A DNA stretch of 64,000 nt from Candidatus Nomurabacteria bacterium (GCA_020632075.1 JACKGH010000001.1:537778-601777), one strand, 5' to 3'; shown: positions 240-58,137, counted from the first letter of the stretch. The notes: generated from the letters alone by a model not told the origin. Translations and numbers: made by a program.

Positions 240-3053
240 CTAGATTGCGCCACCACCGCCTGCGCCACCACCAGTCGACTGGTGGTAGACCCGGACCTGG
301 ATCGCGTCGATCTGTACCGTATTACTTGAAGGCTGACCAATAACCCGAACCGCGAAGTTTGCATTATTGAACTCAGCATACGTCCAGCTGCGGCCCCAAG
401 TATCGCTTGCACCTCCAAGAGTAACTACCGCATCCGTCCCGGTGAGGGTTGGGGTAGTTTTAGCGCTTGTCCAGTTACTTCCGCCGTCGTAAGAAAGCTC
501 AACATCAATATCACCCGCAGCAGTCGTACCCGAAATTTCCATTTTCACTTCGATACCTGTAATAGTATTACCACTTGGCACACTGAAACCGTGGCCGGTG
601 TAGCTTGATGAAGCGTTTGTCGTGTCAGTAGACGCATAGGTACCGTCAACCTTATCGTACGCATACGCCCCATTAGTCCAATCGCCACTATGTGCAGTTG
701 GCCAGAAGTAATTCGGATCATCCCCGATCAGTTCCCCACCTTCATTGGTGCCACCAGTTTCTTCGGAACGACCTTCTGGAGCAGGATCGCCGATCGCCGC
801 AGCACTACCACCACCGCCCTTGTTGATCCGGTGATGTTGTGCCTGATTGACCGATCCACTCACCGTATATGAACCCACATAATCTTCCATCGAAACACCC
901 GACGTGAATAATTCAAAGTTTAGCGATGAACCACTATCCGGCACACTCCAGTCAGCAACTACGATGTAGTTGTCAGTGGTGGTTGCAAGCCAGTCTGTAC
1001 TGAACGTGATACCACCCGAGAAACCTGAGATGCTCATTACACCAGCACCACCAACTTGCTCATCTGTCGCATCATACACACCATCATTATCGTGGTCTTT
1101 GAGGAGTCTGATATTAGAGAAATCAGCAGTGTCTATCTTCTTGGCTCCAGACAGTGTCACCACCAGCTCAGTCACCGTGGCTGTACCACTTTCTGGCGTA
1201 AGTTTGAAGGCGAATAGCGCTTCATCGGTCTTGCTTTGGAAATCAAATGCATTTTCAACCTGGGTTGCATCATGGTCTGCGATCGTGGTCGAACCATACT
1301 CGGCATTGAAATTCCAATTGCTGTTGTTGCCTCCATCAATTGAGTTGAAAGCAGGGATCGGTCCGTATGTACTCGATGACGCATTAGAATCGGACGCAGT
1401 CACAAACTCAACCGTCATTGGGATCGACTGCACATCGAGGTACCACTGCGTATCAGCCTCGGTCGAAGCCAGCCAAACATGAGAATCTTCTGCACCCTGC
1501 CACACGACAGTATTGAAGGTACTGGTCGCGCCAGCAAGGAACTGTGCTGAAGTAGACGCAGCCATGGTGAAAGTGCCAGTGGTAGTTACTGGAGCACCGA
1601 AGACGATCGACTGAGTAGCGCCAGTGCCACTAGTGTTGTAGACAGTCAGATCGTTGAAGGCACTCGCGCCAGAGAGCGTGCCGGTGGCAGTCTGCTGACT
1701 ACTACCACTGAGAAGTACTTCTGAAGTAGAAGCGGTGAATATACCGTTGTTCGTGTAGTCACCGTCGATATCAAGTGTGGTACCAGATGCATGTACGATC
1801 GCACCGGAAAGAATAGAGAAGTCAGTCGTGGAAGCACTAGTCTGGAAGACCTGCACATTATCGGCGACAATCACATCGCCAAAGGCTGATATGCCGATCA
1901 TGGCACCAGAATGCGTAGCCGGGAGATGATATTCATGCACAGCATCACTACCATCACCGGTTATGTACATACGCGAACCATCTGTCGAAAACGCAAACCC
2001 ATACGCATAGGTCTCTTCGGTTGAAAACGAAAACGTATCAACATGAACTGCGGTAGCAACGCTCCACGGGGTGGTAAGAGTAAACTCGTCTACATCATCA
2101 CCATTGTTCCCCGCAACAAACATCTTGTGTCCGTCATTAGAGAAAGCTAATCCTGCAGGAGCTAACTGGTACGAAAATACATTGTAGAGAGTCGCGTAGT
2201 TTGCTGTGGACACGTCAAAAGCAGTGTCAAGTATATATTCATACACTTTCCTGGTGTTGTATCCCATCACAAACATCTTGAGACCATCACTAGAGAACGT
2301 AACATCTGTTGGTTGTGAATCTTGAGCTGACACAGACTTACTGTCGACAAAGCTGGCGTTGGAGACGTCAAAGGCAGCATCAAGCGTATACTCATTGATG
2401 TCATTACCAGTATCCCCTGCCACAAACAACTTCATACCATCATCAGAGAACGTAAGACCAGTTGGGGCGGTGTCTTGCGCAGAGACTGACTTGCTCGCTA
2501 CGAAACTCGCAGTCGAAATGTCCCAGGCAGTGCTGAGTGAGTAGGTGTTGATCTCTTGGCCAACATAGTCAACAGAAAATAGTTTGAGTCCATCGTCAGA
2601 AAACGCGAGACCAAATGAAAGCGAGGCTTGGGCCGCTACACTTGTTGCGTGTACATAACTCGCACTACTAATATCGAAATAGTCTGCACCAGTGAAGTAG
2701 GTTGTGCCGGAGTTATTATCGAAAGTGCCACTGTTGGTGTACACCCCATCAATGGTGAGAAGGCCAGCAGCGGGCGCCGTGAAGCTGCCCCCGCTAGCGA
2801 TGGTAAGGTCTGAGGTTGTTGCATTGTTTGAGGCGGTGTACGAACCAGTCACTACCACATCGCTGAGCTGATCGTCTCCGACTAGGGTTCCTGAGATCGT
2901 TTTGCTTGAACCAGTAAGATAGATTGTTCCGCTATTATTATCAAAATCCCCCCCCACTATTAGTAAGGTCACCAGCAACAGTGAGCAATGTAGGAGCAGT
3001 GACTGTCGCTGTGCCACTACCGATCGTGAAGTCGGTGGTCGAAGCGTTGTCAC
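240..3053 (-). CDS. C-terminal portion (937-aa ORF) of a giant beta-propeller-repeat surface protein; continues the reading frame of 2941..9435 across a G8 frameshift; Gly-rich C-terminus
   Basis: Same 45-50-aa repeat family (S.A.DVS.ASFV.SKSVSAQD..P.G..FS.DG.KMFV.G...Y.L) as the upstream ORF. The 5' end overlaps the 3' end of 2941..9435 in another frame at a C8/G8 tract. Motif ...TNSGG|DFDNNSGT... is restored by removing one G. Confidence 0.6.
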   Translation of the reverse strand: MTTLRPPTSRSVVAQRQSLLLHCSLLLVTLLIVGGDFDNNSGTIYLTGSSKTISGTLVGDDQLSDVVVTGSYTASNNATTSDLTIASGGSFTAPAAGLLTIDGVYTNSGTFDNNSGTTYFTGADYFDISSASYVHATSVAAQASLSFGLAFSDDGLKLFSVDYVGQEINTYSLSTAWDISTASFVASKSVSAQDTAPTGLTFSDDGMKLFVAGDTGNDINEYTLDAAFDVSNASFVDSKSVSAQDSQPTDVTFSSDGLKMFVMGYNTRKVYEYILDTAFDVSTANYATLYNVFSYQLAPAGLAFSNDGHKMFVAGNNGDDVDEFTLTTPWSVATAVHVDTFSFSTEETYAYGFAFSTDGSRMYITGDGSDAVHEYHLPATHSGAMIGISAFGDVIVADNVQVFQTSASTTDFSILSGAIVHASGTTLDIDGDYTNNGIFTASTSEVLLSGSSQQTATGTLSGASAFNDLTVYNTSGTGATQSIVFGAPVTTTGTFTMAASTSAQFLAGATSTFNTVVWQGAEDSHVWLASTEADTQWYLDVQSIPMTVEFVTASDSNASSSTYGPIPAFNSIDGGNNSNWNFNAEYGSTTIADHDATQVENAFDFQSKTDEALFAFKLTPESGTATVTELVVTLSGAKKIDTADFSNIRLLKDHDNDGVYDATDEQVGGAGVMSISGFSGGITFSTDWLATTTDNYIVVADWSVPDSGSSLNFELFTSGVSMEDYVGSYTVSGSVNQAQHHRINKGGGGSAAAIGDPAPEGRSEETGGTNEGGELIGDDPNYFWPTAHSGDWTNGAYAYDKVDGTYASTDTTNASSSYTGHGFSVPSGNTITGIEVKMEISGTTAAGDIDVELSYDGGSNWTSAKTTPTLTGTDAVVTLGGASDTWGRSWTYAEFNNANFAVRVIGQPSSNTVQIDAIQVRVYHQSTGGGAGGGGAI

Positions 3054-6000
3054 TGAAGGTGAGTGGTAGTGTACCTGCAGTTACCAGATCATTAAAGGCC
3101 GAGCCACCGGTCATAGTACCAGAAAACGTCTGCTCCTCCTCAGTAATAACATATTCGTAGATACTATCATTGACGCTACCGGTCATGTACATTTTGGTCC
3201 CTGTGGTGTTGAAGGCTAAGCCATATCCAAAAAGATCTTCAGTACTTATATCTTTACTACTAACGAATGCGGCCGTTGAAATATCGAACGCTGAGGAGAG
3301 GTCGTACTCGTAGACTTTGTTATTGCTACTACCGATCACATACATTCTAGTGCCGGTGGTGTTGAAGGCTAAATCTCTTGGAACAGTATCTTGTGCGGCG
3401 ACGCTCGTAGCGTGGAGATAGGAAGCAGTTGAAATATCGAACGCAGAGGAGAGGTCGTACTCGTAGACTTTGTCGTTTGAAGAACCAACGACGTACATTT
3501 TAGTGCCGGTGGTGTTGATGGTGACACCTACTGGAGTACTGTCCTGTGCGGCGACGCTCGTAGCGTGGAGGTAGGAAGCAGTTGAAATATCGAACGCAGA
3601 GGAGAGGTCGTACTCGTAGACTTTGTTATTACTATCACCAACCATGTACATTTTAGTGCCGGTGGTGTTGATGGTGACACCTACTGGAGTACCGTCCTGT
3701 GCGGCGACGCTCGTAGCGTGGAGATAGGAAGCAGTTGAAATATCGAACGCAGAGGAGAGGTCGTACTCGTAGACTTTGTCGTTTGAAGAACCAACGACGT
3801 ACATTTTAGTGCCGGTGGTGTTGAAAGCAACGTCATATGGAGAAATGTCCTGTGCGGCGACGCTCGTAGCGTGGAGGTAGGAGGCGATAGAGATATCAAA
3901 ACCATTGTTTTCAACAATCACCACACCAGCATTGTGCGAAAAAGTTCCGGCATTGCTGTACGAACCAGTGATAGTTAGTGCATCAGTAGCCGTAAGAGCA
4001 CCGCCAGAAGTGATCGTAAGATCAGACGTGGTCGCATTATCAAGCAACGAATACGAGCCCGTGATGACCACCTCATCAAACCGACTGGAACTTGTAAGTG
4101 TGCCGGAGATCGTTTTGCCACTCCCCGTGAAGACACTGGTCACATCAATTCCCTTTGTACCTGTATTATTGTAATTCCCCGCCACCCGTAGGTTACTACC
4201 CCCAGCTCCGGTGTAAGTGCCAGAGTTGGAAAAATCTCCCCCTACTCGCAAGCTACTACTAGCCGCTGCGGTGTAAGTGCCAGAGTTGGTATACGCACCA
4301 GCGATGTCTGTCACACTGTCAGCACTTACGGTGAAGTCTCCTTCATTGATGTAGTCTCCCGCCACAGAGAGCGTACTGGTTGGAGCAATTACTATCGCAC
4401 TAGCAGTGATGGTCAAATCGGAGGTAGAAGCATTGGCAACATCAAAAGTTTGTTTTGTTTGATCAAACACCACGCTCCCAAACACTGAAGAACCCGTCAT
4501 AGTACCCTGATGAACTGCGTTGAGTTCGATTGTCAGGATACGATCAAATGCACTGTAGTTGGTAAAAAGTATGGAACTATCATAGGTAAGCCACGCCCCA
4601 TAACCAGCAAAAGCACTAGAATAAAGCACTTGCTCTTGATAGTTTGCAGTTGATACATCAAATGGAACCTGTAGTGTGTACTGATGAATTTCTCCCACAT
4701 CTCCCCGCACATACATGTAGTCGCCATTAACTGAGAAAAACAGACCGTCTGTTGAAGTGACTTCTGTCGCAACACTGTAGTTATCGACATAGGTAGCAGT
4801 AGACACATCCCAGGCGGTTCCGAGCAAGTACTCATTGACGTCATCACCATCATCGCCAAGTATGAAAAGTTTTGTGCCGTTGCGTGATAATCGAAAGCCG
4901 GTTGGAGTGGCATCTTGGGTCGTCACTGTAAAGTTGTCAGTGTAACTAGCAGTAGACACATCATAAGCAGTACTCAATGAATACTCATTGACTGCTTCAG
5001 GTTTAGAATTCGAACTTCCCCCAAGCACATACATAGTACGACCATCATCTGAAAATTGTACATCAATCGGATCATCTGTTTGAGTCGCTACACTAAGCCC
5101 GTCCACATACGTCTTTGTTGCCACAACCCAGGCGGTTCCAAGTGTATACTCATAGACTTTGTCATTTGTACTACCCGTCGTAAACATCTTAAGACCGTCA
5201 GGAGAGAAGGTGAGACCTTTTAAAGTGGTATCTTCAGTTTGAGAAGATAATCCAATGGATCTGTAACTAGAAAACCGCTGATTACCATACCCATTAAGGT
5301 ACACTGTGCCGGAGTTATTAGTGAATGTACCATTGTTTGTGTACTCCCCAGTAATGGTAAGTAAGCTTGGCGCAACAAAACTGCCACCCGAAGCAATAGT
5401 CAGATGACTTGTCGAAGCATTGTTCGACGCTGTATACGAACCAAACACCTCGACACTTCCGAGAGCGGAGCCGCCAGTCAGAGTACCCGAGAGGGTTTTG
5501 CTTGTGCCGGTCAATTCTACGACCCCATAATTATGGTCGAAGTCTCCCCCGCTGTTGGTGAAGTTTCCAGCTACCGTGAGTACAACCGGCGCTGTGACTG
5601 TTGCTGCACCGCTACTGATCGTGAAGTCGGTGGTAGAAGCATTATCAGCAAAGTAAGTACTTTGCTCACCGCTGATCACCACATCTCCCAGTGATGAAGT
5701 AGCGATGAGCGTGCCGCTGATCGTCTGTACATCACGCAAACTGTATTGATCGACGCCGTTGAAATCCAGGGTGTAAAACTCGTCTCCTGAAGTAGAGAAC
5801 GCAATGTCTCGAAAAGCATTGAGCGAGACCGTTGGAGTGAAGGTCTGTAGATAGGTCGCTGATGAAATGTCATAGAGCGTACTTAGGTAGTACACAAAGA
5901 CCTGTTCACTATCAAACCCAGCCACATACAAGTATCGCCCGCTCGTAGAGACTACGGCGGCGTTTGGATTTGTATCAAAGTTACCCATGTACAGCGAAGC

Positions 6001-9000
6001 ATTATCATAACCAGCAGTAGAGACGTCCCATGGTGTACTGAGTGTATAAGAATAGATCGTGTTGTTGGTGCCACCGACTACATACATCTTGGTGCCACCT
6101 GAAGAAAAACTCACTCCCTGTGGCCCAGTGTCTTGAGAACTTACACTGGTCGCGTGGGTATAGGCTGCAGTAGAGACATCCCACGCGGTTGAGAGTGTGT
6201 ATTCATAGACACTATTGTTGTCATTTCCGGCTACAAACATTGTAGAACCATCACTCGAGAACGCTACACCCATTGGAGTACCGTCTTGGGACTGCACACT
6301 GGTCGCGTGAGTGTAGGCTGCAGTAGAGACATCCCACGCGGTTGAGAGCGCGTATTCATAGACCTTATCTGTAGTAACTCCTGTGATGTACATATTCGTG
6401 CCGTCAGTTGAGAACGCAAGACCTCGCTGGGCAGAATCCTCATCAGTAGACGATGAGTTTGTATAAGAAGCAGTGGTCAGGTCAAAACCAATACCAGCCG
6501 CGTACAGTGTGCCTCCGTCCGCATCGAAGGTTCCATTCTGTGTCAGATCACCAGTGACCGTGAGAGAATTTGATACCGAAAGGACTGTCCCCTCTGTAAC
6601 GTCTACTTCTGAGGTAGAGGCATTGGCTGGAAATTCTATAGTCTGAACACCGGCCGTCACAAGCTTACCAAGTGATGAAGCACCGGTAAGCGTACCAGTG
6701 AAGGCAGAGCTGGTACTGAAGTCATACTCGTAGACTCGGCCACCCACCTGCGTCGACACGATATACATCTTGTCGAGATCGGCTGAAAAGTTTATGTCAC
6801 GCGGCTCAGTAACCACCGTCCCAACACTGAAAGTGTCAGCAAGCACAGCGGTCGAGACATCCCACGCGGTTGAGAGTGTATATTCGTAGACACTATCATT
6901 CTCATAACCTGACACAAACATCTTGTAGCCATCTCTCGCAAACACAAGACCATGCGGAAATTCGTCTTGTGTCTCAACCAGCTTACTGTCAATAAAGCTA
7001 GCAGTTGAAACATCCCATGGGGTCGAGAGTGTGTACTCATTAACATCATCCCCCCAGTCACCGATCACGAACATCTTGGATCCGTCCGTTGAGAATTGCA
7101 CACTATGCCCATCGCTCTCCTGTGCAGCAACACTGGTCGCGTGCACATAACTAGCAGTCGAGACGTCCCAGGCGGAAGACAAATTGTACTCATGCACTGA
7201 GTCATTCTGTGTACCATTGATGTACATCTTGGTGCCGTCTGGTTTGAAAAAGAGACCAGTTGGCGTATTTTCATACGCCTGCACACTGGTAGCATGAACA
7301 TAGCTGGCTGTTGAAGCGTCCCAAGCAGGTGATAGCGTGTACTGAACCACCTGATCGTTTGTTGAACCAACCACATACATCTTGGTGCCATCAGTCGAAA
7401 AAGCGACCTCTCGTGGACTTGATTCTTGTGTTGTGACTGTCTTGTAGTCCACATAGGCTGCATGCATCAACCCCGCGGTCGTCGTACCACCGTTGTGCGT
7501 AAACACACCGCTATTATTATGAAAATCACCCGTGAGATTCAAATATGCTGGACTTAAGAATGTGTCTCCGCTCCAGATATGTAGTTCCTGTGCTTCCAAG
7601 ATCTTTATCTCGTCGGTCGCAACTGACGCAGTGAATTGTAGATCACTATCATCGGTTGAGTCGTAGTTTGCAAACTCGGTCACACTGGTTGAAGTGCTCC
7701 CCTCTTGGCGCACGATGACTCGATCCTGGTATAGATCGAGGCCTGAAATATGACTCGAAGTCGACGTGGCTTTGGTTACCACCGCCGCTCGAATACTCGA
7801 AGACGCATCAACAAAGACCGTCAACGGCACATCCATACCAAGCAGATATTGATCAACTGCAAAGCTGTACACCCCAGAACCATTAGCAGTCGTGGTAGTA
7901 GCCACTGGTGATCCAGCCCCAACCACTAACTTAATGGTCGCGCCAGTACCAATAACTGTTGACCCTTCATCAGAATACAAAGTCCCCGAAACGGTAGTGG
8001 TAGCATTCTCTTCATACAAACTATCAAGCCTAAGTCCTGAAAACGCTCCATGATCGACATCCATGGTACCAGTGGTAGCCAAGGCAATGTTTTCAACGGA
8101 CACATTGTCGGTTGCACTCATACCTGGCACAAACGCACCATGAGCATGACCCGCATTGTAACTCCATGTATCATTGCGGTTGAATTCATCAGAGCCGGCG
8201 TAATCAATGATCGTGTCATTGACACTAAGTCGAGCAGTCGGATTACCACGTGACACAGCTGCAGCTTCAGATTGCTGTGACCAGAAAAAGATGTAGTCTC
8301 CCGCTACGTCGACTTCTGTAAACGAGTCGGTGGCACTATTGATAGTGAAGGTCGATGCGTCTTCATGAGCTGTGGTGTCCCAAGAAAATTCAGTCAACGT
8401 AGTTGTGTTTTGATCGCCTGAAGTCGCCTCACGAATGAACGTCTCCGCAGCGCTTGGTAATTGAACGATCTCTAACGACCCGCCCTGGAATGTAGCCGTC
8501 AAACCAGCACGCTGAAGGTTCTCAATAGCGAGCACTTCCCCTGCACCAACATCGATGATACCGATGTAGTTAAGAACACCATCTTCAGCCTCTTGTGCAG
8601 TTCGCATCATCGTGGACACTCGCGTCCCCTCTACTTCCACATCATCCAAAGTGATCCGAGAAGTGTACTCCGTTCGATCTGCAGTAGTTCCAGCACCATC
8701 AGCAAACATTGGTAATGAATAGGAAACGAGATACCTGCCAGCATTTGCAATGGTAATATTTGCACCACTTCTTGAGAATCCTGTATCCTCTTCGTTGGTC
8801 GTATCCCACGCCACATCAGCGTGTGTGGTGGAAGCAGAGTTCGCACTCACAGCACCCGAGAGAGCGTACCGTGCGTAGTTCCAAGCATCAGGAAGCTTAA
8901 TGACCTGTACACCATTCCAGCCGGCATTCTCTCGGGTTGGAATACCTGTACTATCGTTGTCTGTTTTGTAGAAGTTCGTTTCAAGTGAGGTGGTCGCACT

Positions 9001-9435
9001 TGCAACATTAATGATCGCGTTACCCGATGTCATACACTCCTGCTGCCCGTTCAGCTTTCTCATATAACATTGTGAGGCACCAGAGGTAGCTGTCACTCCC
9101 CCAATATCGAGCCGACCTTGAATTTCCTTTCTGGTGTTGTCAGTAGCATCAGTTGTTTCCCAGAGCTGCGTATACAACACCAAGTACTTTCCCGTTTCTA
9201 GTTCGAACTTACTTCCACTGTACGTGATCGCTGTTCCCGAAGCATGTGTCTCACTGTTCCAGCCAAAGATCGCTTCACTGGTCGATACTGCGGTGGTATC
9301 GGTAGTGTTTTCACGCACCATGTACTCGAGCATGGTGGCGTGCACTTGAGCCGGGACCGCAAGCACAGCAAACACAAAGAACACTATGAACAGTGACTGA
9401 ATTACTTTTACTTGTGTGATCAATGCGGTCTTCAT
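2941..9435 (-). CDS. Giant secreted repeat protein (2164-aa ORF, N-terminal part of a ~3064-aa protein); signal peptide plus tandem YVTN/NHL-like beta-propeller blade repeats and right-handed-helix-like T/S/G-rich spacer repeats
   Basis: N-terminal MKTALITQVKVIQSLFIVFFVFAVLAVPAQVHA is signal-peptide-like. More than 20 copies of ~50-aa units (FDISTASYLHATSVAAQD.TPVGV..N.TGTKMYVVGSSNDKVYEYDLSSA). The stop lies immediately after a G8 tract. Confidence 0.65.
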   Translation of the reverse strand: MKTALITQVKVIQSLFIVFFVFAVLAVPAQVHATMLEYMVRENTTDTTAVSTSEAIFGWNSETHASGTAITYSGSKFELETGKYLVLYTQLWETTDATDNTRKEIQGRLDIGGVTATSGASQCYMRKLNGQQECMTSGNAIINVASATTSLETNFYKTDNDSTGIPTRENAGWNGVQVIKLPDAWNYARYALSGAVSANSASTTHADVAWDTTNEEDTGFSRSGANITIANAGRYLVSYSLPMFADGAGTTADRTEYTSRITLDDVEVEGTRVSTMMRTAQEAEDGVLNYIGIIDVGAGEVLAIENLQRAGLTATFQGGSLEIVQLPSAAETFIREATSGDQNTTTLTEFSWDTTAHEDASTFTINSATDSFTEVDVAGDYIFFWSQQSEAAAVSRGNPTARLSVNDTIIDYAGSDEFNRNDTWSYNAGHAHGAFVPGMSATDNVSVENIALATTGTMDVDHGAFSGLRLDSLYEENATTTVSGTLYSDEGSTVIGTGATIKLVVGAGSPVATTTTANGSGVYSFAVDQYLLGMDVPLTVFVDASSSIRAAVVTKATSTSSHISGLDLYQDRVIVRQEGSTSTSVTEFANYDSTDDSDLQFTASVATDEIKILEAQELHIWSGDTFLSPAYLNLTGDFHNNSGVFTHNGGTTTAGLMHAAYVDYKTVTTQESSPREVAFSTDGTKMYVVGSTNDQVVQYTLSPAWDASTASYVHATSVQAYENTPTGLFFKPDGTKMYINGTQNDSVHEYNLSSAWDVSTASYVHATSVAAQESDGHSVQFSTDGSKMFVIGDWGDDVNEYTLSTPWDVSTASFIDSKLVETQDEFPHGLVFARDGYKMFVSGYENDSVYEYTLSTAWDVSTAVLADTFSVGTVVTEPRDINFSADLDKMYIVSTQVGGRVYEYDFSTSSAFTGTLTGASSLGKLVTAGVQTIEFPANASTSEVDVTEGTVLSVSNSLTVTGDLTQNGTFDADGGTLYAAGIGFDLTTASYTNSSSTDEDSAQRGLAFSTDGTNMYITGVTTDKVYEYALSTAWDVSTAAYTHATSVQSQDGTPMGVAFSSDGSTMFVAGNDNNSVYEYTLSTAWDVSTAAYTHATSVSSQDTGPQGVSFSSGGTKMYVVGGTNNTIYSYTLSTPWDVSTAGYDNASLYMGNFDTNPNAAVVSTSGRYLYVAGFDSEQVFVYYLSTLYDISSATYLQTFTPTVSLNAFRDIAFSTSGDEFYTLDFNGVDQYSLRDVQTISGTLIATSSLGDVVISGEQSTYFADNASTTDFTISSGAATVTAPVVLTVAGNFTNSGGDFDHNYGVVELTGTSKTLSGTLTGGSALGSVEVFGSYTASNNASTSHLTIASGGSFVAPSLLTITGEYTNNGTFTNNSGTVYLNGYGNQRFSSYRSIGLSSQTEDTTLKGLTFSPDGLKMFTTGSTNDKVYEYTLGTAWVVATKTYVDGLSVATQTDDPIDVQFSDDGRTMYVLGGSSNSKPEAVNEYSLSTAYDVSTASYTDNFTVTTQDATPTGFRLSRNGTKLFILGDDGDDVNEYLLGTAWDVSTATYVDNYSVATEVTSTDGLFFSVNGDYMYVRGDVGEIHQYTLQVPFDVSTANYQEQVLYSSAFAGYGAWLTYDSSILFTNYSAFDRILTIELNAVHQGTMTGSSVFGSVVFDQTKQTFDVANASTSDLTITASAIVIAPTSTLSVAGDYINEGDFTVSADSVTDIAGAYTNSGTYTAAASSSLRVGGDFSNSGTYTGAGGSNLRVAGNYNNTGTKGIDVTSVFTGSGKTISGTLTSSSRFDEVVITGSYSLLDNATTSDLTITSGGALTATDALTITGSYSNAGTFSHNAGVVIVENNGFDISIASYLHATSVAAQDISPYDVAFNTTGTKMYVVGSSNDKVYEYDLSSAFDISTASYLHATSVAAQDGTPVGVTINTTGTKMYMVGDSNNKVYEYDLSSAFDISTASYLHATSVAAQDSTPVGVTINTTGTKMYVVGSSNDKVYEYDLSSAFDISTASYLHATSVAAQDTVPRDLAFNTTGTRMYVIGSSNNKVYEYDLSSAFDISTAAFVSSKDISTEDLFGYGLAFNTTGTKMYMTGSVNDSIYEYVITEEEQTFSGTMTGGSAFNDLVTAGTLPLTFSDNASTTDFTIGSGTATVTAPTLLTVAGDLTNSGGGF
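2948..2955 (-). repeat. Homopolymeric G8 (C8 on + strand) tract at the junction of the two giant-protein ORFs
   Basis: Sequence tcaaaatCCCCCCCCactattag. Frame 1 stops 2 codons after it; frame 2 continues the same repeat motif. Confidence 0.9.
3150..3910 (-). repeat. Near-identical tandem 150-bp (50-aa) coding repeats inside the giant protein gene
   Basis: The string ggaagcagttgaaatatcgaacgcagaggagaggtcgtactcgtagactttgt recurs at ~3421, 3571 and 3721, with diverged copies at ~3270 and ~3870. They encode FDISTASYLHATSVAAQD...KVYEYDLSSA units. Confidence 0.8.
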
Positions 9436-9437
9436 GG

Positions 9438-12400
9438 CTACGTTGTTGGTTCTGGAGCTGAATCTACTGGACTTGCCGGTTCCTCAGCTGGTGGTTCCGG
9501 GGTTGGTTCTGGGTCTTCGGCCGGCAATTCAGACTCTTCACTCTCCTCTTCTACTATTGGCTCGACCGGCGGCTCTTCTGGCATTTCTTCGATCGTCGGT
9601 TCAGTCGTAGGTTCTTCTACTGTCTCCGGGGAACTCGTTGCAGCGTCTTGTTCTTCTGTAGTATCTGGAACGGTTTCGTTTGTACTACTTGCGGTTTGAT
9701 CAGTCGAACTGGCGGTGTCATCAGGCTCAGTACCAGCATTTCCCCCCTGAGTCTGTCCACCCGAGGTGTTGCTGTCAGTATTGGTGCTGCCACCAGCTGA
9801 GCCAGTGTTGTTAGTGCTGCTTGTATCAGTTGTTGCAGCCTGCACATCGAGCAAGAGGCGGAGATCATCCGCAGTCACACACACACCGTCGACACAGAGT
9901 TCATTAGCGATCTCAACGCGATCTGCCTTAAGCGTGAAGACTGAGAGCACGCCATCCACGAAGCGATTTGCGAGAGCAACCAAACGGTCGAAGATAGTTT
10001 CATCCTCATTATCACCGACCACTTCAATGCTGCTAGTGCCCATAAGCGCCTGGATACCAGCAAGCTGAGCATCATCAACCCAACGGAAACCACGATCGAC
10101 AAACATTACGATCTGACCAACCTTCACCTCAGTATTTCGATCAAGATCGATCGTTTCACTTTCAGTCTCGCGAAGTGCTTGGAGTGCTTCAGCGACAGAT
10201 TCACGCTCAATGATGTCATTAGCTTCTTCGATGCGTCCTTCTGTCGTGGTGGCGTTTAGTGGTACACACGGGTCCTCACCAAGCGCTGAGCCACCACCGA
10301 AGTAACAACCATCATCAATACGTGGATCGTATTCAGTGAAGATAGGCTCGAACACTGGATCGATCATGTCATCGCCAAACTGATTGATGTATGTCTCACT
10401 GTACATACGCTCATCATCGAAGTCTTCAAGTGCGATACCGATAGTCGCTCCAGTGCCAGTTGCCTTCATTGCAATACCTGGCAGGCTTGAGAGCATAAGC
10501 TGATCACCCTTCTTGATCGGTCCGTTTTCAGTCGAAAGCTTTACTGGCACACGTCCAGTAAGCGCAACTGGATACCGCGTCTCTCCTTCAGTGAGTGACA
10601 CATCGTCGGCACCGAGGGTGATACCCGGCTTAGTAGAAACCACACCGAGGATCGGTAGAACGCTATCTCGATTGGCTCGTTCGATCGAGAGTTCACCAGC
10701 GAGCGTTACCACCTCACCCGTCTCGAGCGCAGCGCTTGAGAAGTATGTTTCTGCCAAGTCAGAGTTGCCGGTATCGTAATCACGTGCTGAGATCTTACCG
10801 CTTGTAGATGCAGTACACTCACCATCGTAATCGACACAGATACCACCAAATGGGATCTGGAGACCAGCCAAGTTTGCAGTCGAGCCATCGTTACGACCGA
10901 TCGTCGTGGTACCGAATGCAGACACCGTGAATACAGGGTTGTTTGCGTTTCGGAAATCAAGATACTTTGAGGTCGACGATGAGAATGAGCCACCCGTACC
11001 ATTACCGAAGTTCATCTCAAGACCAGTACCTTCGAAATCACTCGAGCTCTGGAAGAGACTCAAAAGCGTAGCGGTCGTGATCGTGTCTGAGTAGCCGCGA
11101 ATCGCGTTACCTTGAGTAGTACCTTCTGTTTCGAAGTACCCACCCGCTGGCTCGTAGGTTGCTCCCGCATCGCCAGTTGTTACACCGCGTACACCAAAGG
11201 TACGAGCGAAGCCTGAAAGTGCGGTGTTTTCACCGTACGTATTGATACCGCGGTGTGCCTGCACTTCAAGACCACGCACAGTATTTGCGTAGTCTGTACT
11301 ATCTTGTACCCGGATCATACTACCAACGAGTGTGGTGGTCGCGGTATTTGAAGCTGTAAGGTAAAAGCGGTTACCATACTGCACCGCATCTTCAACAGAG
11401 TTAGTAGTCTGCAAGTACTGATCGAATCCGATCACTCCTGCACCATCAAAGTCGGTGCTTTCAAGAGTAAGCTTCGCGCTTGGAGTGGTGCTACCAATAC
11501 TGACCGAAGTACTGCCAATACCTCCCTGACCATCAGCGCGACCAAAGACAGTAAGAAGTGGCGTACCGTCAAGACTTGCCGAGTAGCTCATGACCGTACC
11601 GGTTGCAGACGCAGTCGTGACTCCCATGTCAGTCCACGAGACGATTCCCGCATCATCCGCAAACGTCATGTTACCCAGTGCGAGATTCTCAATCGTGGTC
11701 TGGTTGGTCGCACTATCATATGAGATCGCACCATTAGCGACTTCGAAGTCACCGGTGAGAGCGATCTTTGGATAGGTACCATCAGTATCGATACGGAAGA
11801 TCGGTGAGGCTGATGATGAGGTAGCGATGGTGAACGCAAACGCAGTACTGTCTTTAATAGTACTGGTAGCGTTGGTGAAGTACTGGAGAAGAAGGTCACT
11901 CGCTGAAGAAGAAGCGAATGAGATCACGTTTGAATCAAGCCAGGTGTCACCAGCGACTGAGAGTTTAGCGCTTGGGGATGAGGTACCGATGCCAACGAAT
12001 CCACTATTGTCGACCGTGAGTACTCGCCCACTCGCGTTATCGAGCGTGAGGATGTCACCAGTACCGAGCTGAGTGATCGAGGTGCTCGTAGCAGAGGTTG
12101 AGCCGGTGATGCTGAAGAGGTTGTATGCACGTTCGTCGTCGGTGGTGATGGTAGTGCGGTCCCATTCGTTGTAGCGGGTGTCGGTACCTGCATCACTGAC
12201 GTAGGTGGTGGTGTCGGGGTTGATGTAGGTATTGCCCACAATGACGGTGTGTTCGGAGTTTACCGTCTCGATCTCGATCAATGCAGCGGTACCGGTGGCC
12301 CTAATACTGTTACCAGAAATGAGAACGTCATCTGGCGCAACACCGCCAATATCATCAAGAAAGATGCTGGCATTTCCGCCACCACCATTCGCAATAAGGA

Positions 12401-15400
12401 CATTACCAGACACAAGAGTACGATCACTCGACCAAGAAACCCGAATACCATACACACTATTGGTGGCGATTTGGTTACCAATAATACTGTTGTCTGTTGC
12501 CCCCTGCCCCGTCACGATACCTTCAGGGTTCCCGGCAACGGTGTTGTCTGAAATAATGTTTCGACTCGCGTTTAGACCAATTTCAATACCGTAACTACCA
12601 TTACCATAAACCTGGTTGTTGGAGACGTGGTTTTCGACACTTGCTGTTCCCAAATACAAACCATGCCCGCTACCACTATTCATCTGGTTGCTGGTAATAA
12701 TGTTGTTGTTTGAGTTTGAGTTAACAAGAACGTTGTAACTACTATTACTATTGACTTGATTGCCCACAACCATGTTGTCCGAACTCTCGTCTAAGTAAAC
12801 ACCGTACACACTATCCTCAACCAAGTTCCCTTGCACAACGTTTTCATTTGAGCTAGTGAGCAACCCGATACCAATCCCAGCCGCGTCATCACTATTAATG
12901 AAACTGTTCGCAACAGTGTTGTTTGAACTTGAGACGAGATAAATACCCAAGTTTTCATTACCACCGGCAGTGACCTGCTCCACAGTATTACCGTTGGCAT
13001 ACGACAAGTACACACCAGCATTTTGAAAATCATTTGCGATGACATGCGCAATCGAAGACGAGCTGGTATTACTAAACCAGATACCATACTGATCATCACT
13101 GGCGGTGTTATTACTTAGATTACCTTCAAGGTGCAGACCAGCCACGCGCACGTGATTGCTCGACGTTGCCAGAATCATAGCGACCGTGTTGGCGGTATTC
13201 GCATCAAGTGTGAGAACTGTGCTGCTTCCCTGTCCAATCAGACTGGTAGAGGAAGCCAAGGTGATCACGCTGGTGGCGTAGGTGGTCGTACCGACCGCGT
13301 AATTTCCCGCGAGCAGCCGGACTTCGCCGCCGCCGTTACCAGCAACGTAATCAATCGCTGCCTGAATGGTCGCTTCATCAGCGGTCCCATCCGCCGTATA
13401 GTCTGCATACGCTTTCTCATTCGCTGGACTGTCTGCAGCAGCGACGACTACGGCGGTGTCACCGGCTGATTTGATACATGAGCCAGAAGCATCTTGGAAA
13501 CAACCACCCTCAAGCTTGATGCCGTTGGCGAAGGTTGAGGTGGCAGTGGTGGTTGAGACATAAAGGATGTTCTCGATGGTGGTGGTTGCACTGGTGAGGG
13601 TGAGGAGACCGTTGGTGCCCACTGTAGAACCAGTACCGATCTTGAAGGTGTCGTCGGTGTCGTCGAGGCCGAGGTAGAAGTCGACTGCAGAACCATCAAA
13701 CAGTGCAGCCAGATCTTCAGCCAGACCTGTTCCAAATGTAATAGTAGAACCAGTCCCTCCGGTTGAACTGATACTCAAGTCTCCACTCGCATTCACACTA
13801 AGCTCACTGTAATTAGACCCATCATACGAAAGTCGCAGTGCGTTTGAGGTACCAAAGATATCAAGCATTGCTCCTGGTGAAGCTGTACCAAGTCCAAGGT
13901 TGGTTCCGTCATACACAAAGGTTGAATCAAAGGCCAGGGCTGAACCAGAGACGTATGGGATAGCGTTGGTGGTATATGAACCTGGAGTATCAGAAAGACC
14001 AAGGAAGGTACCATTACCTAAGCCAAGGCTTGAGGTAGCAATGTCTGCCCAGGCTGAACCATTCCAATATAAGAGGTCACCGTAGTTTTCGGTCATTGCG
14101 GCGACATCAGAGAGGTCTTCGAGGGCGGAGGCGCCGGCTGAGAAACCAAGGGTGGTGGTTGAGACCCAGTCGAAGCCACCAGCTGCGGTGCTTGAAGCTT
14201 GAAGGACATAGCCATTGACCCAGTTGGAAGCAGCCAGGCTTGAAGAAGCAACGGTGGTAGTTGAGAGGACTCCGTTAGCATCGGCGGTGAGGAGGCCGCT
14301 GGTGAGACCACTCACAGTGAGAGTGCCGTCGTTACCAACCGTGAAAACGCGACCAGTCGCGTTGTCTAGAGTAAGGATGTCACCAGTACCGAGCTGAGTG
14401 ATCGAGGTACTCGTAGCTGAGGTTGAGCCGGTGATGCTGAAGAGGTCGTGTGTGCGGGTGGTTGGCGTTGTGAGTGTGCGGCGATCAAACTGATCGAACA
14501 TCGTTCCGGTACCTAAGTCACGGACAGACAGTGCTCCAGTGCCTGAGTGTGTATTATTTGCAATAACGTTATCGTTTGCGGTCGAAGATTGGATATCAAT
14601 CGCTCGTCCAGTCCCGGCCGCACTCACGATCCGGTTACCGGTGATGAGGTTTCGATCAGAGTTACTGCTGACGATAACTCCCGTTCCGGTCGCACCTCCA
14701 TTATTGTTGTTTATGAAATTGTTACCGCTCACTAAGTTATCAGAACTATTCTCAACGAACACACCTACTGTTGTGTTGTTTTGGAAGGTGTTTCCGGTGA
14801 CGGTGTTGTTACTTGATCCGTTTTCAAAATAAATTCCTCGGTTACTGCTCTCAAAGACGTTACCGGTGACTAGGTTGTAATCACCATTGTAGAAAAGAAC
14901 ACCTTGGTTACCCATGTCACGAAAGATGTTGCCAGTAACAGTGTTGTATCCACCAAGATAAAATGTGATTCCCTCCCAAGAGTTATCATGAATAGTATTA
15001 TTTGCAAAAATGGTGTGATAGACCGTATCAGCATCAATACCGTAGTTGCTGAATCCGGAAATCATGTTGTTCGTAATCTGGTTTCCTCGGGTACTAGTAT
15101 AGAGGCGGATACCGGAACCTCGTCCATCTTTAATCGATAGACCAGTGATCGTCGAACTTGCTGTGCCAGCAAAGTGAATACCGTGCTGGGTACCAGTAGT
15201 CTGCCCGGTTTTATTCAAGTCGAGCGTCATATCACGCACTGTGATATCTGTCACACCAGTTGCGTAGAACATGTAGTAGGTCGCATTGAAACTGTTCCTG
15301 AGCTGCAAAACAGTGCTCTTGCCAGAACCAACCAATGCTACTGAGGATGTTGCAAAATTAATACCACGATTCGAAAAACTGGTTGTACCAAGAGTGAATG

Positions 15401-16769
15401 TACCCGGAAGGAGGTGCACCATACCCCCACTCGCCGACAACGAATCAAGAGCCTGTTGGATCTCAACTTCGTCATCAGTACCGTCTGCAACATAATCTGC
15501 GTGTGCCTTCTGACTCGCTGGAGAATCGCTTGCCGCAACTACCACCATGGTGTCACCATTCCAAGATGAAGTGCCTGTCGTAACCCAACTTGAACCATTC
15601 CAATAGAGAACGTCGTTGGTGGCAATGCTGGTAGTAGAGACATCTGAGAGCTGACCAAGCTGCAGTGCATTTTGTGCAAAGTAGTATGCACTCGAAGTAC
15701 TGAAGCCACCACTCAGGAACGCTGCTGCTTCGTAGCCATCAAGGGTACCGGTCCAGTCTCCGGTCTTGGTGAGATACGAATCACCAATAGCCGCACCGTT
15801 CCAAGTCGCATCATAGATCGTACCGTCCACCTCAAGATCACCACTGATGAATGCACTGTTGTATCGATTACCAGACGCAATGCTACTGATGGTTGACGAG
15901 CCTACAGTAAGAAGTGTCGTTGGTGAAGTAGTGCCGATACCAACGTACCCACCGCTTGCAATAGTCATTCGAGATGCGTTATTGGTGATAAGACGAAGGT
16001 CATGAGCTGAGACAGTTCCCATGAAGCCTTGGAAGTCTTCACTACGAACATCTACGGTCACACTGTTAGTTTCATCGATGAAGCGACCACCTGCATTTGT
16101 CGTGCTAGACACGGTAAGTAATCTAACTGACGTCGCACCAAGTCCAACGTAGCCATTATCCGTAACAGTGAACACTTCTGTACCACCATCAAGTAAGTTC
16201 AGAATGTCACCAGTACCTGACTGGTTAATGGTCAAAAGTGTGTTTGTGTCAGTAGCAGCGATCGTATCTGATTGGTCGGAACGTACAAAACTAGACGACG
16301 CAACACCACCAAGCTTGTATGACTCAAACGCTGCTGGCACAGTGCCGAGCGGCTTGCGAGGACTCATTTCCCCATCCCAACTTGGTGAACCGCCAGTACC
16401 ACCGATCTCAACACCGAGGTAGAGATCTTGGTTGAAGTCAACACTAGTAAGTGGTGAAGTACTGCCGAGCATTACACTGAAGAGACCGTTGGTAACCTGT
16501 ACACCTTCACTAGAACCAACAAGTCGTTCCTCGGTCCACACTGCTGACGTGGTAGCCTGACTGGTATTCTGCAACAACCAAAAACGCATGTTGTATGTAC
16601 CGTCTGACACCGTCGCGCCAGTAGCATCGGTAAGCTTTCCTTGGTAGTTGATGTTCGGATTTGGTTCAGCGTGTACCGTAGACGTCCAACCTAAAAGACT
16701 GACACCAAAGGAGAGGAGTAGCAAGAAAGCAAGTTTAGTTGTAATGTTTCGCGCCGCCATACTTACCAT
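9438..16769 (-). CDS. Giant secreted protein (2443 aa) with two tandem modules each containing a right-handed parallel beta-helix (pectate-lyase/tailspike-like, PbH1-type NxxGN repeats); C-terminal acidic Pro/Glu/Thr-rich tail
   Basis: Signal peptide MVSMAARNITTKLAFLLLLSFGVSLLGWTSTVHA. Repeats such as NNTVTGNTFQNNTTVGVFVENSSDNLVSGNNFINN and NNTVANSFINSDDAAGIGIG... Duplicated flanks: LYWNGS.W before and LFSITGSTSATSTSITQLGTGDILTLDNA after each helix domain. C-terminus EPTIEEMPEEPPVEPIVEEESEESELPAEDPEPTPEPP. The stop is 2 nt from the start of the next giant gene. Confidence 0.65.
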   Translation of the reverse strand: MVSMAARNITTKLAFLLLLSFGVSLLGWTSTVHAEPNPNINYQGKLTDATGATVSDGTYNMRFWLLQNTSQATTSAVWTEERLVGSSEGVQVTNGLFSVMLGSTSPLTSVDFNQDLYLGVEIGGTGGSPSWDGEMSPRKPLGTVPAAFESYKLGGVASSSFVRSDQSDTIAATDTNTLLTINQSGTGDILNLLDGGTEVFTVTDNGYVGLGATSVRLLTVSSTTNAGGRFIDETNSVTVDVRSEDFQGFMGTVSAHDLRLITNNASRMTIASGGYVGIGTTSPTTLLTVGSSTISSIASGNRYNSAFISGDLEVDGTIYDATWNGAAIGDSYLTKTGDWTGTLDGYEAAAFLSGGFSTSSAYYFAQNALQLGQLSDVSTTSIATNDVLYWNGSSWVTTGTSSWNGDTMVVVAASDSPASQKAHADYVADGTDDEVEIQQALDSLSASGGMVHLLPGTFTLGTTSFSNRGINFATSSVALVGSGKSTVLQLRNSFNATYYMFYATGVTDITVRDMTLDLNKTGQTTGTQHGIHFAGTASSTITGLSIKDGRGSGIRLYTSTRGNQITNNMISGFSNYGIDADTVYHTIFANNTIHDNSWEGITFYLGGYNTVTGNIFRDMGNQGVLFYNGDYNLVTGNVFESSNRGIYFENGSSNNTVTGNTFQNNTTVGVFVENSSDNLVSGNNFINNNNGGATGTGVIVSSNSDRNLITGNRIVSAAGTGRAIDIQSSTANDNVIANNTHSGTGALSVRDLGTGTMFDQFDRRTLTTPTTRTHDLFSITGSTSATSTSITQLGTGDILTLDNATGRVFTVGNDGTLTVSGLTSGLLTADANGVLSTTTVASSSLAASNWVNGYVLQASSTAAGGFDWVSTTTLGFSAGASALEDLSDVAAMTENYGDLLYWNGSAWADIATSSLGLGNGTFLGLSDTPGSYTTNAIPYVSGSALAFDSTFVYDGTNLGLGTASPGAMLDIFGTSNALRLSYDGSNYSELSVNASGDLSISSTGGTGSTITFGTGLAEDLAALFDGSAVDFYLGLDDTDDTFKIGTGSTVGTNGLLTLTSATTTIENILYVSTTTATSTFANGIKLEGGCFQDASGSCIKSAGDTAVVVAAADSPANEKAYADYTADGTADEATIQAAIDYVAGNGGGEVRLLAGNYAVGTTTYATSVITLASSTSLIGQGSSTVLTLDANTANTVAMILATSSNHVRVAGLHLEGNLSNNTASDDQYGIWFSNTSSSSIAHVIANDFQNAGVYLSYANGNTVEQVTAGGNENLGIYLVSSSNNTVANSFINSDDAAGIGIGLLTSSNENVVQGNLVEDSVYGVYLDESSDNMVVGNQVNSNSSYNVLVNSNSNNNIITSNQMNSGSGHGLYLGTASVENHVSNNQVYGNGSYGIEIGLNASRNIISDNTVAGNPEGIVTGQGATDNSIIGNQIATNSVYGIRVSWSSDRTLVSGNVLIANGGGGNASIFLDDIGGVAPDDVLISGNSIRATGTAALIEIETVNSEHTVIVGNTYINPDTTTYVSDAGTDTRYNEWDRTTITTDDERAYNLFSITGSTSATSTSITQLGTGDILTLDNASGRVLTVDNSGFVGIGTSSPSAKLSVAGDTWLDSNVISFASSSASDLLLQYFTNATSTIKDSTAFAFTIATSSSASPIFRIDTDGTYPKIALTGDFEVANGAISYDSATNQTTIENLALGNMTFADDAGIVSWTDMGVTTASATGTVMSYSASLDGTPLLTVFGRADGQGGIGSTSVSIGSTTPSAKLTLESTDFDGAGVIGFDQYLQTTNSVEDAVQYGNRFYLTASNTATTTLVGSMIRVQDSTDYANTVRGLEVQAHRGINTYGENTALSGFARTFGVRGVTTGDAGATYEPAGGYFETEGTTQGNAIRGYSDTITTATLLSLFQSSSDFEGTGLEMNFGNGTGGSFSSSTSKYLDFRNANNPVFTVSAFGTTTIGRNDGSTANLAGLQIPFGGICVDYDGECTASTSGKISARDYDTGNSDLAETYFSSAALETGEVVTLAGELSIERANRDSVLPILGVVSTKPGITLGADDVSLTEGETRYPVALTGRVPVKLSTENGPIKKGDQLMLSSLPGIAMKATGTGATIGIALEDFDDERMYSETYINQFGDDMIDPVFEPIFTEYDPRIDDGCYFGGGSALGEDPCVPLNATTTEGRIEEANDIIERESVAEALQALRETESETIDLDRNTEVKVGQIVMFVDRGFRWVDDAQLAGIQALMGTSSIEVVGDNEDETIFDRLVALANRFVDGVLSVFTLKADRVEIANELCVDGVCVTADDLRLLLDVQAATTDTSSTNNTGSAGGSTNTDSNTSGGQTQGGNAGTEPDDTASSTDQTASSTNETVPDTTEEQDAATSSPETVEEPTTEPTIEEMPEEPPVEPIVEEESEESELPAEDPEPTPEPPAEEPASPVDSAPEPTT

Positions 16770-58134: not shown

Positions 58135-58137
58135 ACA

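Follow-up and report, generated by a model that had tools for sequence, protein, structure and literature searches.

A frameshifted giant gene of a Candidatus Nomurabacteria bacterium encoding predicted five-bladed beta-propellers related to phage tail-module proteins

The window considered here is a stretch of 64,000 nucleotides (nt) from a Candidatus Nomurabacteria bacterium (GCA_020632075.1, JACKGH010000001.1:537778-601777), and its subject is a giant, repeat-rich gene located on the minus strand at the beginning of that stretch (Table 1). As sequenced, the gene comprises two open reading frames (ORFs), 2941-9435 (2,164 amino acids, aa) and 240-3053 (937 aa), which lie in different frames and overlap by 113 nt. 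They are one gene interrupted by a +1 frameshift, since the deletion of a single G from a run of eight (G8) opens 3,064 codons with zero internal stops and restores a motif of a paralogous module; the junction read with seven G residues (G7), NSGGDFDNNSG, resembles the module sequence NSGGDFDHNYG located 870 residues upstream. With G8, the frame instead reads NSGGGF, and the first ORF, which ends in ...TVAGDLTNSGGGF, runs into four consecutive stop codons (TGA TAA TAA TAG); the second ORF includes ...GGDFDNNSGTIYLTG. The tract is read in codons as GGG-GGG-G, in which GGG is the rarest Gly codon of the gene, and the paralogous site is GGG-GGA-GAC. Among the 68 homopolymer runs of at least 6 nt in the window, three T8 runs included, G8 is the only one where a 1-nt indel fuses two long ORFs, and it is also the sole G/C run of at least 7 nt, with three G/C runs of 6 seen. 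Both ORFs are thus best annotated as one interrupted gene. An earlier note on this DNA, made from the sequence alone, had described one continuous protein reaching to a Gly-rich end, GGGAGGGGAI; the ending is indeed present, but a strand detail of that note was wrong, and the protein is continuous only after the one-G deletion, the frameshift having gone unnoticed.

The gene product contains 25 blade units within 1923-7482, 24 of which are significant by a repeat hidden Markov model (domain E-values from 6e-29 to 2e-6), and a degenerate 25th is recognized by its position and motif. Each unit spans 51 aa, with the exception of one of 52 aa and one of 55 aa, and the units are grouped in five blocks of five. 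An alignment of 55 homologues yields the blade consensus WD(V/I)STASY..FSV..QE..P.G.FFKPDGTKMYV.G..GD.V.EY.LS, in which near-invariant F, D, G, Y, L, and W residues recur in each blade with a 51-aa period. The claim of the earlier note that repeats fill most of 240-7500 therefore holds far beyond chance, its consensus agrees with the alignment, and its count of at least about 25 units proves to be exactly 25; however, the units are longer than the 45-50 aa it had given, and the 5 x 5 grouping, which it had missed, replaces its single long array.

An AlphaFold2 model of block 1, built from the alignment of 55 homologues, consists of 20 strands (5 x 4) with a predicted local distance difference test (pLDDT) score of 95.8 and a predicted template modeling (pTM) score of 0.92. 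Among the top 50 Foldseek matches in the PDB, every one is a beta-propeller, with template modeling (TM) scores of 0.5-0.6; those with names include WD40 proteins, the YVTN propeller 1L0Q, and a luciferin-regenerating enzyme, propellers which we take to have six or seven blades, and moderate TM scores are expected when the blade number differs from five. The blocks are accordingly read as five-bladed beta-propellers, as the propeller-blade reading of the earlier note had anticipated, and closure of the five blades into a ring is suggested by the confidence scores of the model together with its near-perfect superposition on independent viral models. The suggested YVTN/NHL type was correct in its first half, as the only solved sequence relative is 1L0Q (E 1.4e-8 for a single block and 1.8e-15 for a profile); the NHL repeat (PF01436), searched in whole proteins at E<=0.01 and in single blocks at E<=1, gave no Pfam match. 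Additionally, the NCBIfam YVTN repeat TIGR02276, a model of about 40 residues, shows no match at E<=1.

The closest relatives of the blocks are found among phages, a relationship which had not been seen in the earlier note. More than 5,000 database proteins of 270-450 aa share the same five units at about 50% identity across the whole block, and many of them are phage proteins. The gp51 protein of Lentibacter phage vB_LenP_ICBM2 (AYP28110.1) is 46.6% identical over 88% of the block (E 8e-53), and its gene is flanked by tail assembly chaperone genes within a region described as a variable tail-fiber module (PMC6775973). Furthermore, two contigs from ENA (L007 and L008) carry three tandem paralogues between SU10_adaptor and Phage_tail_APC genes. 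Against predicted viral structures, Foldseek returned TM scores of 0.92-0.96 with root-mean-square deviations (rmsd) of 1.0-1.7 A, including A0A3G2YRG7 (TM 0.96, rmsd 1.1 A), and one match carries the annotation of a baseplate wedge subunit. A prophage origin of the region was rejected, since the neighbors are housekeeping and glycan-synthesis genes and no capsid, portal, or terminase gene occurs among them.

The five blocks differ in the similarity of their units. Tandem Repeats Finder identified a 153-nt period with 4.0 copies and 87% matches at 3275-3882, within block 4, where units 1-4 are pairwise 77-93% identical at the DNA level, the upper value belonging to the most similar adjacent blades, and the longest exact stretch in common is 71 nt; unit 5 is 54-61% identical to them. 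In blocks 1, 2, 3, and 5, the mean DNA identity among units is 43-52%. The median blade identity is 77% in block 4, and the mean is 28-42% in the other four. Differences among the block 4 units are patchy (nt positions 57-83 and 101-128 within the unit), with identical stretches in between, and the proportion of synonymous differences (pS) is 0.08-0.46, with a nonsynonymous-to-synonymous ratio (pN/pS) of 0.35-0.85. Such a mosaic of patches separated by identical stretches is in keeping with unequal exchange or gene conversion that took place repeatedly, rather than with one very recent burst. The five near-identical copies of 150 bp placed at 3230-3900 by the earlier note are hence four similar copies with a 153-nt period and a diverged fifth, and its proposal of recent expansion or gene conversion is supported in block 4 only. 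These 153-nt repeats disrupt short-read assemblies, and the fragility in assembly predicted by the earlier note shows in an independent metagenome-assembled genome (MAG), the contig of which stops inside block 4 at window position 3749. The copy number in block 4 might conceivably be an assembly artefact; had units been collapsed or expanded, four or six blades would be expected, and the five present, equal to the other four blocks and every homologue, argue against it. As another source of variation, block 4 as a target of a diversity-generating retroelement was rejected, since no reverse transcriptase occurs in the ORFs scanned (Pfam on 41 ORFs of at least 150 aa, three short plus-strand ORFs inside minus-strand genes being left out) and the units differ in patches and not specifically at adenines.

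The propellers are connected by 75-aa modules with the consensus xTxSGTLTGxSxLGDVVxxG...NASTSDLTIxSGxxVTAPxxLTIxGDYTNxGTFxxNxGxV. In a model of propeller 5 with a module on either side, the modules appear as trains of 3-7-residue strands only (pLDDT 57-84), and they probably stack as a solenoid-like shaft. The short strands are compatible with the beta-helix spacers suggested in the earlier note, although its unit of about 35 aa falls short of the 75 aa observed. A two-module spacer compared with Pfam and NCBIfam retrieved no family at E<=0.05, hence no curated beta-helix repeat of the autotransporter/PATR or pectate-lyase kind. In spacer 3, a 60-nt (20-aa) mini-repeat at 4173-4289, (L)RVGGDFSNSGTYTGAGGS, corresponds to the second half of the module, and this half-module alone is repeated 20-53 times in other giant proteins.

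Of the 857 cluster representatives recovered by an exhaustive search with the module profile, 303 reach E<=1e-10; almost all of the 857 are 1,000-6,700 aa long, with 4-53 copies of the module each. The top 149 of the 857 representatives were tallied for other features. Five-blade blocks of 51-aa units were found in 24 of them (with as many as 28 blades in one protein), the stalk domain (aa 480-650) in 48, the C-terminal domains in 44-49, and the tail motif (V/I)YHQxxGGGGxGGGG(E/A/S)I at the end of 56; the motif also closes L006 6521-11701 and P0131. Because the module, blade blocks, stalk, C-terminal domains, and tail recur across these 149 representatives, the window protein belongs, judging from these shared elements, to a so far undescribed family of giant proteins built from modules. 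Three of its features are uncurated and suited to family models, i.e., the five-bladed propeller of 51-aa blades, the 75-aa connector, and the YHQxxGGGGxGGGGxI C-terminus.

The protein is very large and acidic, with 25% Ser+Thr and 2 Cys residues, and its signal peptide is the sole hydrophobic stretch. By motif search, neither an LPXTG-like motif nor a C-terminal hydrophobic segment was found, and SLH and choline-binding (CW_binding) repeats gave no Pfam match, in agreement with the earlier note, which had seen no anchor of these three kinds. The Gly tail, with no hydrophobic segment after it, resembles a family-specific C-terminal sorting, processing, or anchoring signal; we know of no C-terminal signal of the form YHQxxGGGGxGGGGxI. 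The C-terminal domains have no Pfam match, and the C-terminal 560 aa retrieved nothing from the PDB by sequence at E<=1. In PHROGs, the N- and C-terminal regions were without a match, and the propeller hit a single weak family without known function. Three units of about 150 aa (W-D/N-T/S...G.Y.V...) look similar by eye in the N-terminal region but are not detected by BLAST, a self-comparison of the N-terminal 660 aa showing no self-similarity.

Table 1. Features of the interrupted giant gene in window coordinates, and the conserved four-gene stretch of the related loci in the coordinates of each locus
Feature	Position	Strand	Remarks
Whole gene	240..9435	-	Single 3,064-aa ORF once one G is deleted; two ORFs as sequenced
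Signal peptide MKTALITQVKVIQSLFIVFFVFAVLAVPAQVHA	9337..9435	-	Only hydrophobic segment of the protein; Sec-type
N-terminal variable region, aa 34-479	7999..9336	-	No family match; absent from related giant proteins
Conserved stalk domain, aa 480-615, and partial module, aa 616-651	7483..7998	-	Common to L006, L011, and 48/149 related giants
Propeller 1, aa 652-905, five 51-aa blades	6721..7482	-	Repeat profile, AlphaFold2, and Foldseek
Spacer 1, single 75-aa module	6490..6720	-	
Propeller 2, aa 983-1233, five blades	5737..6489	-	Repeat profile
Spacer 2, two 75-aa modules	5284..5736	-	
Propeller 3, aa 1385-1640, four clear blades, the fifth degenerate	4516..5283	-	Repeat profile
Spacer 3, two modules separated by three or four additional 20-aa coils	3904..4515	-	
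Propeller 4, aa 1845-2096; blades 1-4 homogenized 153-nt units, blade 5 diverged	3148..3903	-	
Spacer 4, two modules; G8 frameshift near the end of the first module	2682..3147	-	
G8 homopolymer (C8 on the + strand)	2948..2955	-	+1 frameshift
Propeller 5, aa 2252-2504, five blades	1923..2681	-	Repeat profile and model
One full and one partial 75-aa module after propeller 5	1548..1922	-	
Conserved C-terminal domains, aa 2630-3054	273..1547	-	53% identity to the Nomurabacteria orthologue; 51 database relatives, none named
C-terminal tail GGGAGGGGAI	243..272	-	Belongs to the conserved ending YHQxxGGGGxGGGGxI
Four-gene stretch	L010 3630-7851; L006 11898-16064; L011 11586-15731; L012 3051-7312		

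The neighbors of the gene in the window are cellular and include GatB, Obg, SecA, MurB, glycosyltransferases, and an O-antigen-ligase-like protein. Directly upstream, a second giant gene (9438-16769, minus strand), whose end lies 2 nt ahead of the propeller gene's start, encodes 2,443 aa with NosD/parallel beta-helix repeats. Relative to the counterpart in L006, a Candidatus Nomurabacteria locus, its product is 63-65% identical over the first ~400 and last ~680 residues and differs in the middle, a design of conserved ends and variable center which the propeller gene shows as well. A contig of a second assembly, L010 (GCA_020428695.1, JAGQMK010000003.1; 18.6 kb, with proteins labeled Candidatus Kaiserbacteria), matches the window at 100% identity along 3,416 nt and is the MAG contig that terminates within block 4. 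At 149-333 of L010 (window 3417-3601), 185 N cover one-and-a-bit repeat units, which may reflect masking or an in-repeat scaffold gap. The same protein sequence also occurs on a 1,080-bp contig (L005) binned in Candidatus Saccharibacteria HKST-UBA75; this short contig is probably mis-binned. The 2,164-aa ORF itself had no exact counterpart in the assembly index. A Nomurabacteria MAG is the closest relative in synteny, which favors a Parcubacteria-type label for the locus.

Downstream of the gene in L010 are four conserved genes of unknown function, followed by GAPDH, RpiB, Rpe, and transketolase, an order retained in three other Patescibacteria loci (L006, L011, and L012). The four genes encode proteins of about 236, 349, 254, and 549 aa, the last with an fn3 domain, and they may be accessory factors for a fiber formed by the giant protein. 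The giant gene itself differs among these loci. In L006, the orthologue is intact (1,726 aa) and retains the stalk, modules, C-terminus (53% identity), and Gly tail, with a Kelch-like propeller instead of the five-bladed heads. The L011 orthologue (4532-11352) is scattered over at least four frames next to nine downstream neighbors at the intact lengths of the other loci. The L012 orthologue (1258-2952) is reduced to 564 aa, with one module, the C-terminal domains, and the Gly tail, and lacks a signal peptide. Head exchange and repeated inactivation have thus taken place at this syntenic locus. One break of the L011 gene is located at a short G run (TGGGGC), and a PemK toxin gene lies between both giant genes there; unrelated small ORFs stand upstream of the shortened L012 gene.

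Further into the window, at 32000-56000, is a glycan-synthesis cluster of about 30 kb, which comprises glycosyltransferases, methyltransferases, a GDP-mannose dehydratase, a flippase, and the O-antigen-ligase-like gene, and the G+C content is 38-42% at 34-42 kb, compared with 47-50% elsewhere. The content of the cluster and the drop in G+C suggest a variable or acquired surface-glycan island. Two more surface- or secretion-related genes adjoin each other at 56746-60513 (minus strand); one encodes 462 aa with Lamin-tail and PKD domains, the other 791 aa with a TrwB-type coupling-protein domain.

Considering these features together, we regard it as probable that the gene encodes a modular, fast-evolving secreted adhesin or host-recognition fiber, which binds the surface of another cell and is switched off or inactivated in this genome. 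The full-length fiber would begin with a Sec signal peptide, followed by the N-terminal region, the stalk, five propeller cassettes flanked by modules, the two-domain C-terminus, and the oligo-Gly tail. Its propellers would act as working heads that bind a surface polysaccharide or other surface ligand of the partner cell, probably a glycan, and the five heads of one fiber could provide multivalent binding. A ligand-binding fiber is suggested by the signal peptide and secreted-type composition, by the use of the same domain in phage tail-fiber modules, by conserved residues that repeat in each blade and give no hint of one active site, and by a fast, cassette-like evolution typical of recognition proteins. 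In this respect, the locus changes rapidly, with heads swapped between orthologues, the blades of head 4 re-amplified or homogenized through unequal recombination or gene conversion, and the gene recurrently inactivated.

Several points weigh against such a fiber. The case for ligand binding comes solely from homology with proteins of phage tail modules that have not been characterized either, and the episymbiont lifestyle is assumed from cultivated Patescibacteria. The solenoid-like shaft leans on a model of moderate confidence in the modules, a cell anchor was not identified among the LPXTG, SLH, and choline-binding features sought, and the weak lactonase-type Pfam matches of the blocks leave room for an enzymatic role. 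Finally, the gene is interrupted as sequenced, so a full-length product may never be made. A slip from G7 to G8 would halt translation past head 4, whereby head 5 and the conserved C-terminus would be lost, and the state seen in this genome could be either a reversible off state or a first step of decay.

The frameshift might be a mere sequencing or assembly error at the homopolymer, the true genome having G7 and the full 3,064-aa protein. This is unlikely, although the break falls exactly in the homopolymer, and the removal of one base restores both the frame and the paralogous motif. Long-read or hybrid assemblies are prone to homopolymer indels, and the length of the window suggests an assembly of this type. 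However, the identical G8 is present in GCA_020428695.1, whose matching contig is broken in the repeat as a short-read assembly would be; moreover, none of the other 67 runs of at least 6 nt shows an ORF-splitting indel, and orthologues elsewhere are likewise broken or shortened.

These broken orthologues lead to the second alternative, in which the gene is a decaying pseudogene whose array is functionless in this organism. Analogous to the window gene with its four consecutive stop codons after the frameshift, the L011 orthologue lies in pieces beside intact neighbors, and the L012 orthologue is a C-terminal remnant. We nevertheless consider a pseudogene unlikely, to the same degree as an assembly error, since there is a single lesion in 9.2 kb, the two halves are open over 2,164 and 937 codons, every blade is still recognizable, and pN/pS remains below 1 among the block 4 units; the first 2,164 aa, with four heads, could also still be secreted.

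Alternatively, the G tract may serve as a phase-variation switch, in which slipped-strand mispairing between G7 (full fiber) and G8 (without head 5 and the C-terminus) would maintain a mixed population. As in contingency loci, the homopolymer tract lies inside the reading frame of a putative surface-protein gene, and both the scarcity of long G/C runs in the 64 kb and the twofold use of the rarest Gly codon, where the paralogous site has GGG GGA GAC, would agree with a switch. A switch is still rather doubtful. The tract has a single length, G8, in two assemblies (n=2) that probably sample one community, and a search of Joint Genome Institute (JGI) metagenome contigs for its flanks yielded zero matches. 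In addition, the tract is not kept in the paralogous module, and the breaks of the L011 orthologue lie elsewhere, a pattern closer to decay than to a switch. A fixed lesion takes the probability left by an assembly error and phase variation, and outright loss of function makes up only a part of it, since the first 2,164 aa could still be secreted.

Regarding function, the enzymatic and surface-layer (S-layer) alternatives are less likely than the favored adhesin. A structural S-layer-type envelope protein, whose propellers tile the cell surface with no partner recognition, is improbable; the only solved sequence relative being the YVTN propeller of a Methanosarcina S-layer protein, as well as the great size, acidity, and Ser/Thr richness of the protein, would agree with it, but a housekeeping envelope protein is unlikely to be frameshifted, shortened, or given another propeller in syntenic relatives, and the nearest relatives are phage tail-module proteins, not S-layer proteins. 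The least probable is that the propellers are lactonase/SGL-like or polysaccharide-modifying enzymes, which would form a multi-catalytic extracellular degrader with the neighboring NosD/beta-helix protein; the best Pfam matches of the blocks, SGL (PF08450) and Lactonase (PF10282), the names YvrE or 6-phosphogluconolactonase given to homologues at JGI, and the pectate-lyase-like beta-helix repeats of the upstream gene point to it, but the matches are partial (SGL reaches 30-42 bits per block against a gathering threshold of 26.3, on stretches of ~40-55 of 246 profile positions), SGL enzymes are six-bladed and not five-bladed, the near-invariant residues recur in every blade like structural residues or repeated binding sites rather than one active site, and the nearest relatives lie in phage tail-fiber modules.

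Returning to the adhesin fiber, a bolder extension can be formulated, which we consider speculative and unlikely to hold in full. In this extension, the Patescibacteria scaffold of stalk, 75-aa connectors, and C-terminus would accept interchangeable receptor-binding heads, including a five-bladed propeller exchanged with phage tail fibers; the oligo-Gly tail would be a new sorting or anchoring signal; specificity would change through head swaps and blade re-amplification; and G-tract slippage would toggle expression. If true, the locus would be a cellular counterpart of phage tail-fiber evolution and a handle on host choice by episymbionts. How the ultrasmall candidate phyla radiation (CPR) bacteria recognize and hold their partners is largely unknown, and type IV pili have been the main lead so far on CPR attachment to partner cells (PMC11623550). 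The locus supplies concrete candidates, among them two giant secreted proteins encoded in synteny, of which one bears heads of the phage tail-fiber-module kind that differ between related genomes.

As a giant repetitive surface protein with propeller heads, the window protein would belong to a kind already known; its noteworthy features are the heads shared with phages, the uncurated scaffold family with its oligo-Gly C-terminus, and the homopolymer frameshift. The YVTN propeller 1L0Q of the Methanosarcina mazei surface-layer protein is homologous in its blade sequence and extracellular, as presumed for the window protein, whereas its Foldseek TM score to the block is just 0.53. We take 1L0Q to have seven blades of about 42 aa and, after them, a PKD domain, compared with five blades of 51 aa here. 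Propellers with a median blade identity above 60% have been defined as highly symmetric (Pereira and Lupas 2022, PMC9218822). By this definition, block 4 qualifies with its median of 77%, but only four of its five blades are homogenized, and the other four propellers are differentiated and do not qualify.

The Gp45 protein of Staphylococcus phage phi11, whose ligand we take to be N-acetylglucosamine on wall teichoic acid, resembles the window propellers in use and blade number only, with no sequence link detected, and is absent from the PDB sequence matches and from the top 50 Foldseek PDB matches of the block. Its receptor-binding part is a five-bladed propeller platform (PMC4901313). At the upper end of the size range, giant proteins of 10,000-85,000 aa from Omnitrophota and Clostridia have been proposed to function in prey or host adhesion (West-Roberts et al., bioRxiv 10.1101/2023.11.21.568195). 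Similar to these, the window protein is very large and secreted, with beta-helix-like stretches and propeller or carbohydrate-binding repeats; unlike them, with their RCC1 and dockerin domains, it has the 75-aa module, the five-bladed head, and the Gly tail, which are not described there. Closest of all are the phage propellers of ICBM2 gp51, Roseobacter phage CRP-9, Roseobacter phage CRP-13, Synechococcus phage S-SKS1, and uncultured Caudovirales A0A6J5NPF0, which share the five 51-aa blades and their consensus and are 35-47% identical to the block along its whole length. These phage proteins, annotated as hypothetical and encoded beside tail assembly chaperones, are 270-1,300 aa long and usually contain one propeller, whereas the window gene combines five copies in a single cellular protein of 3,064 aa with 75-aa modules between them.

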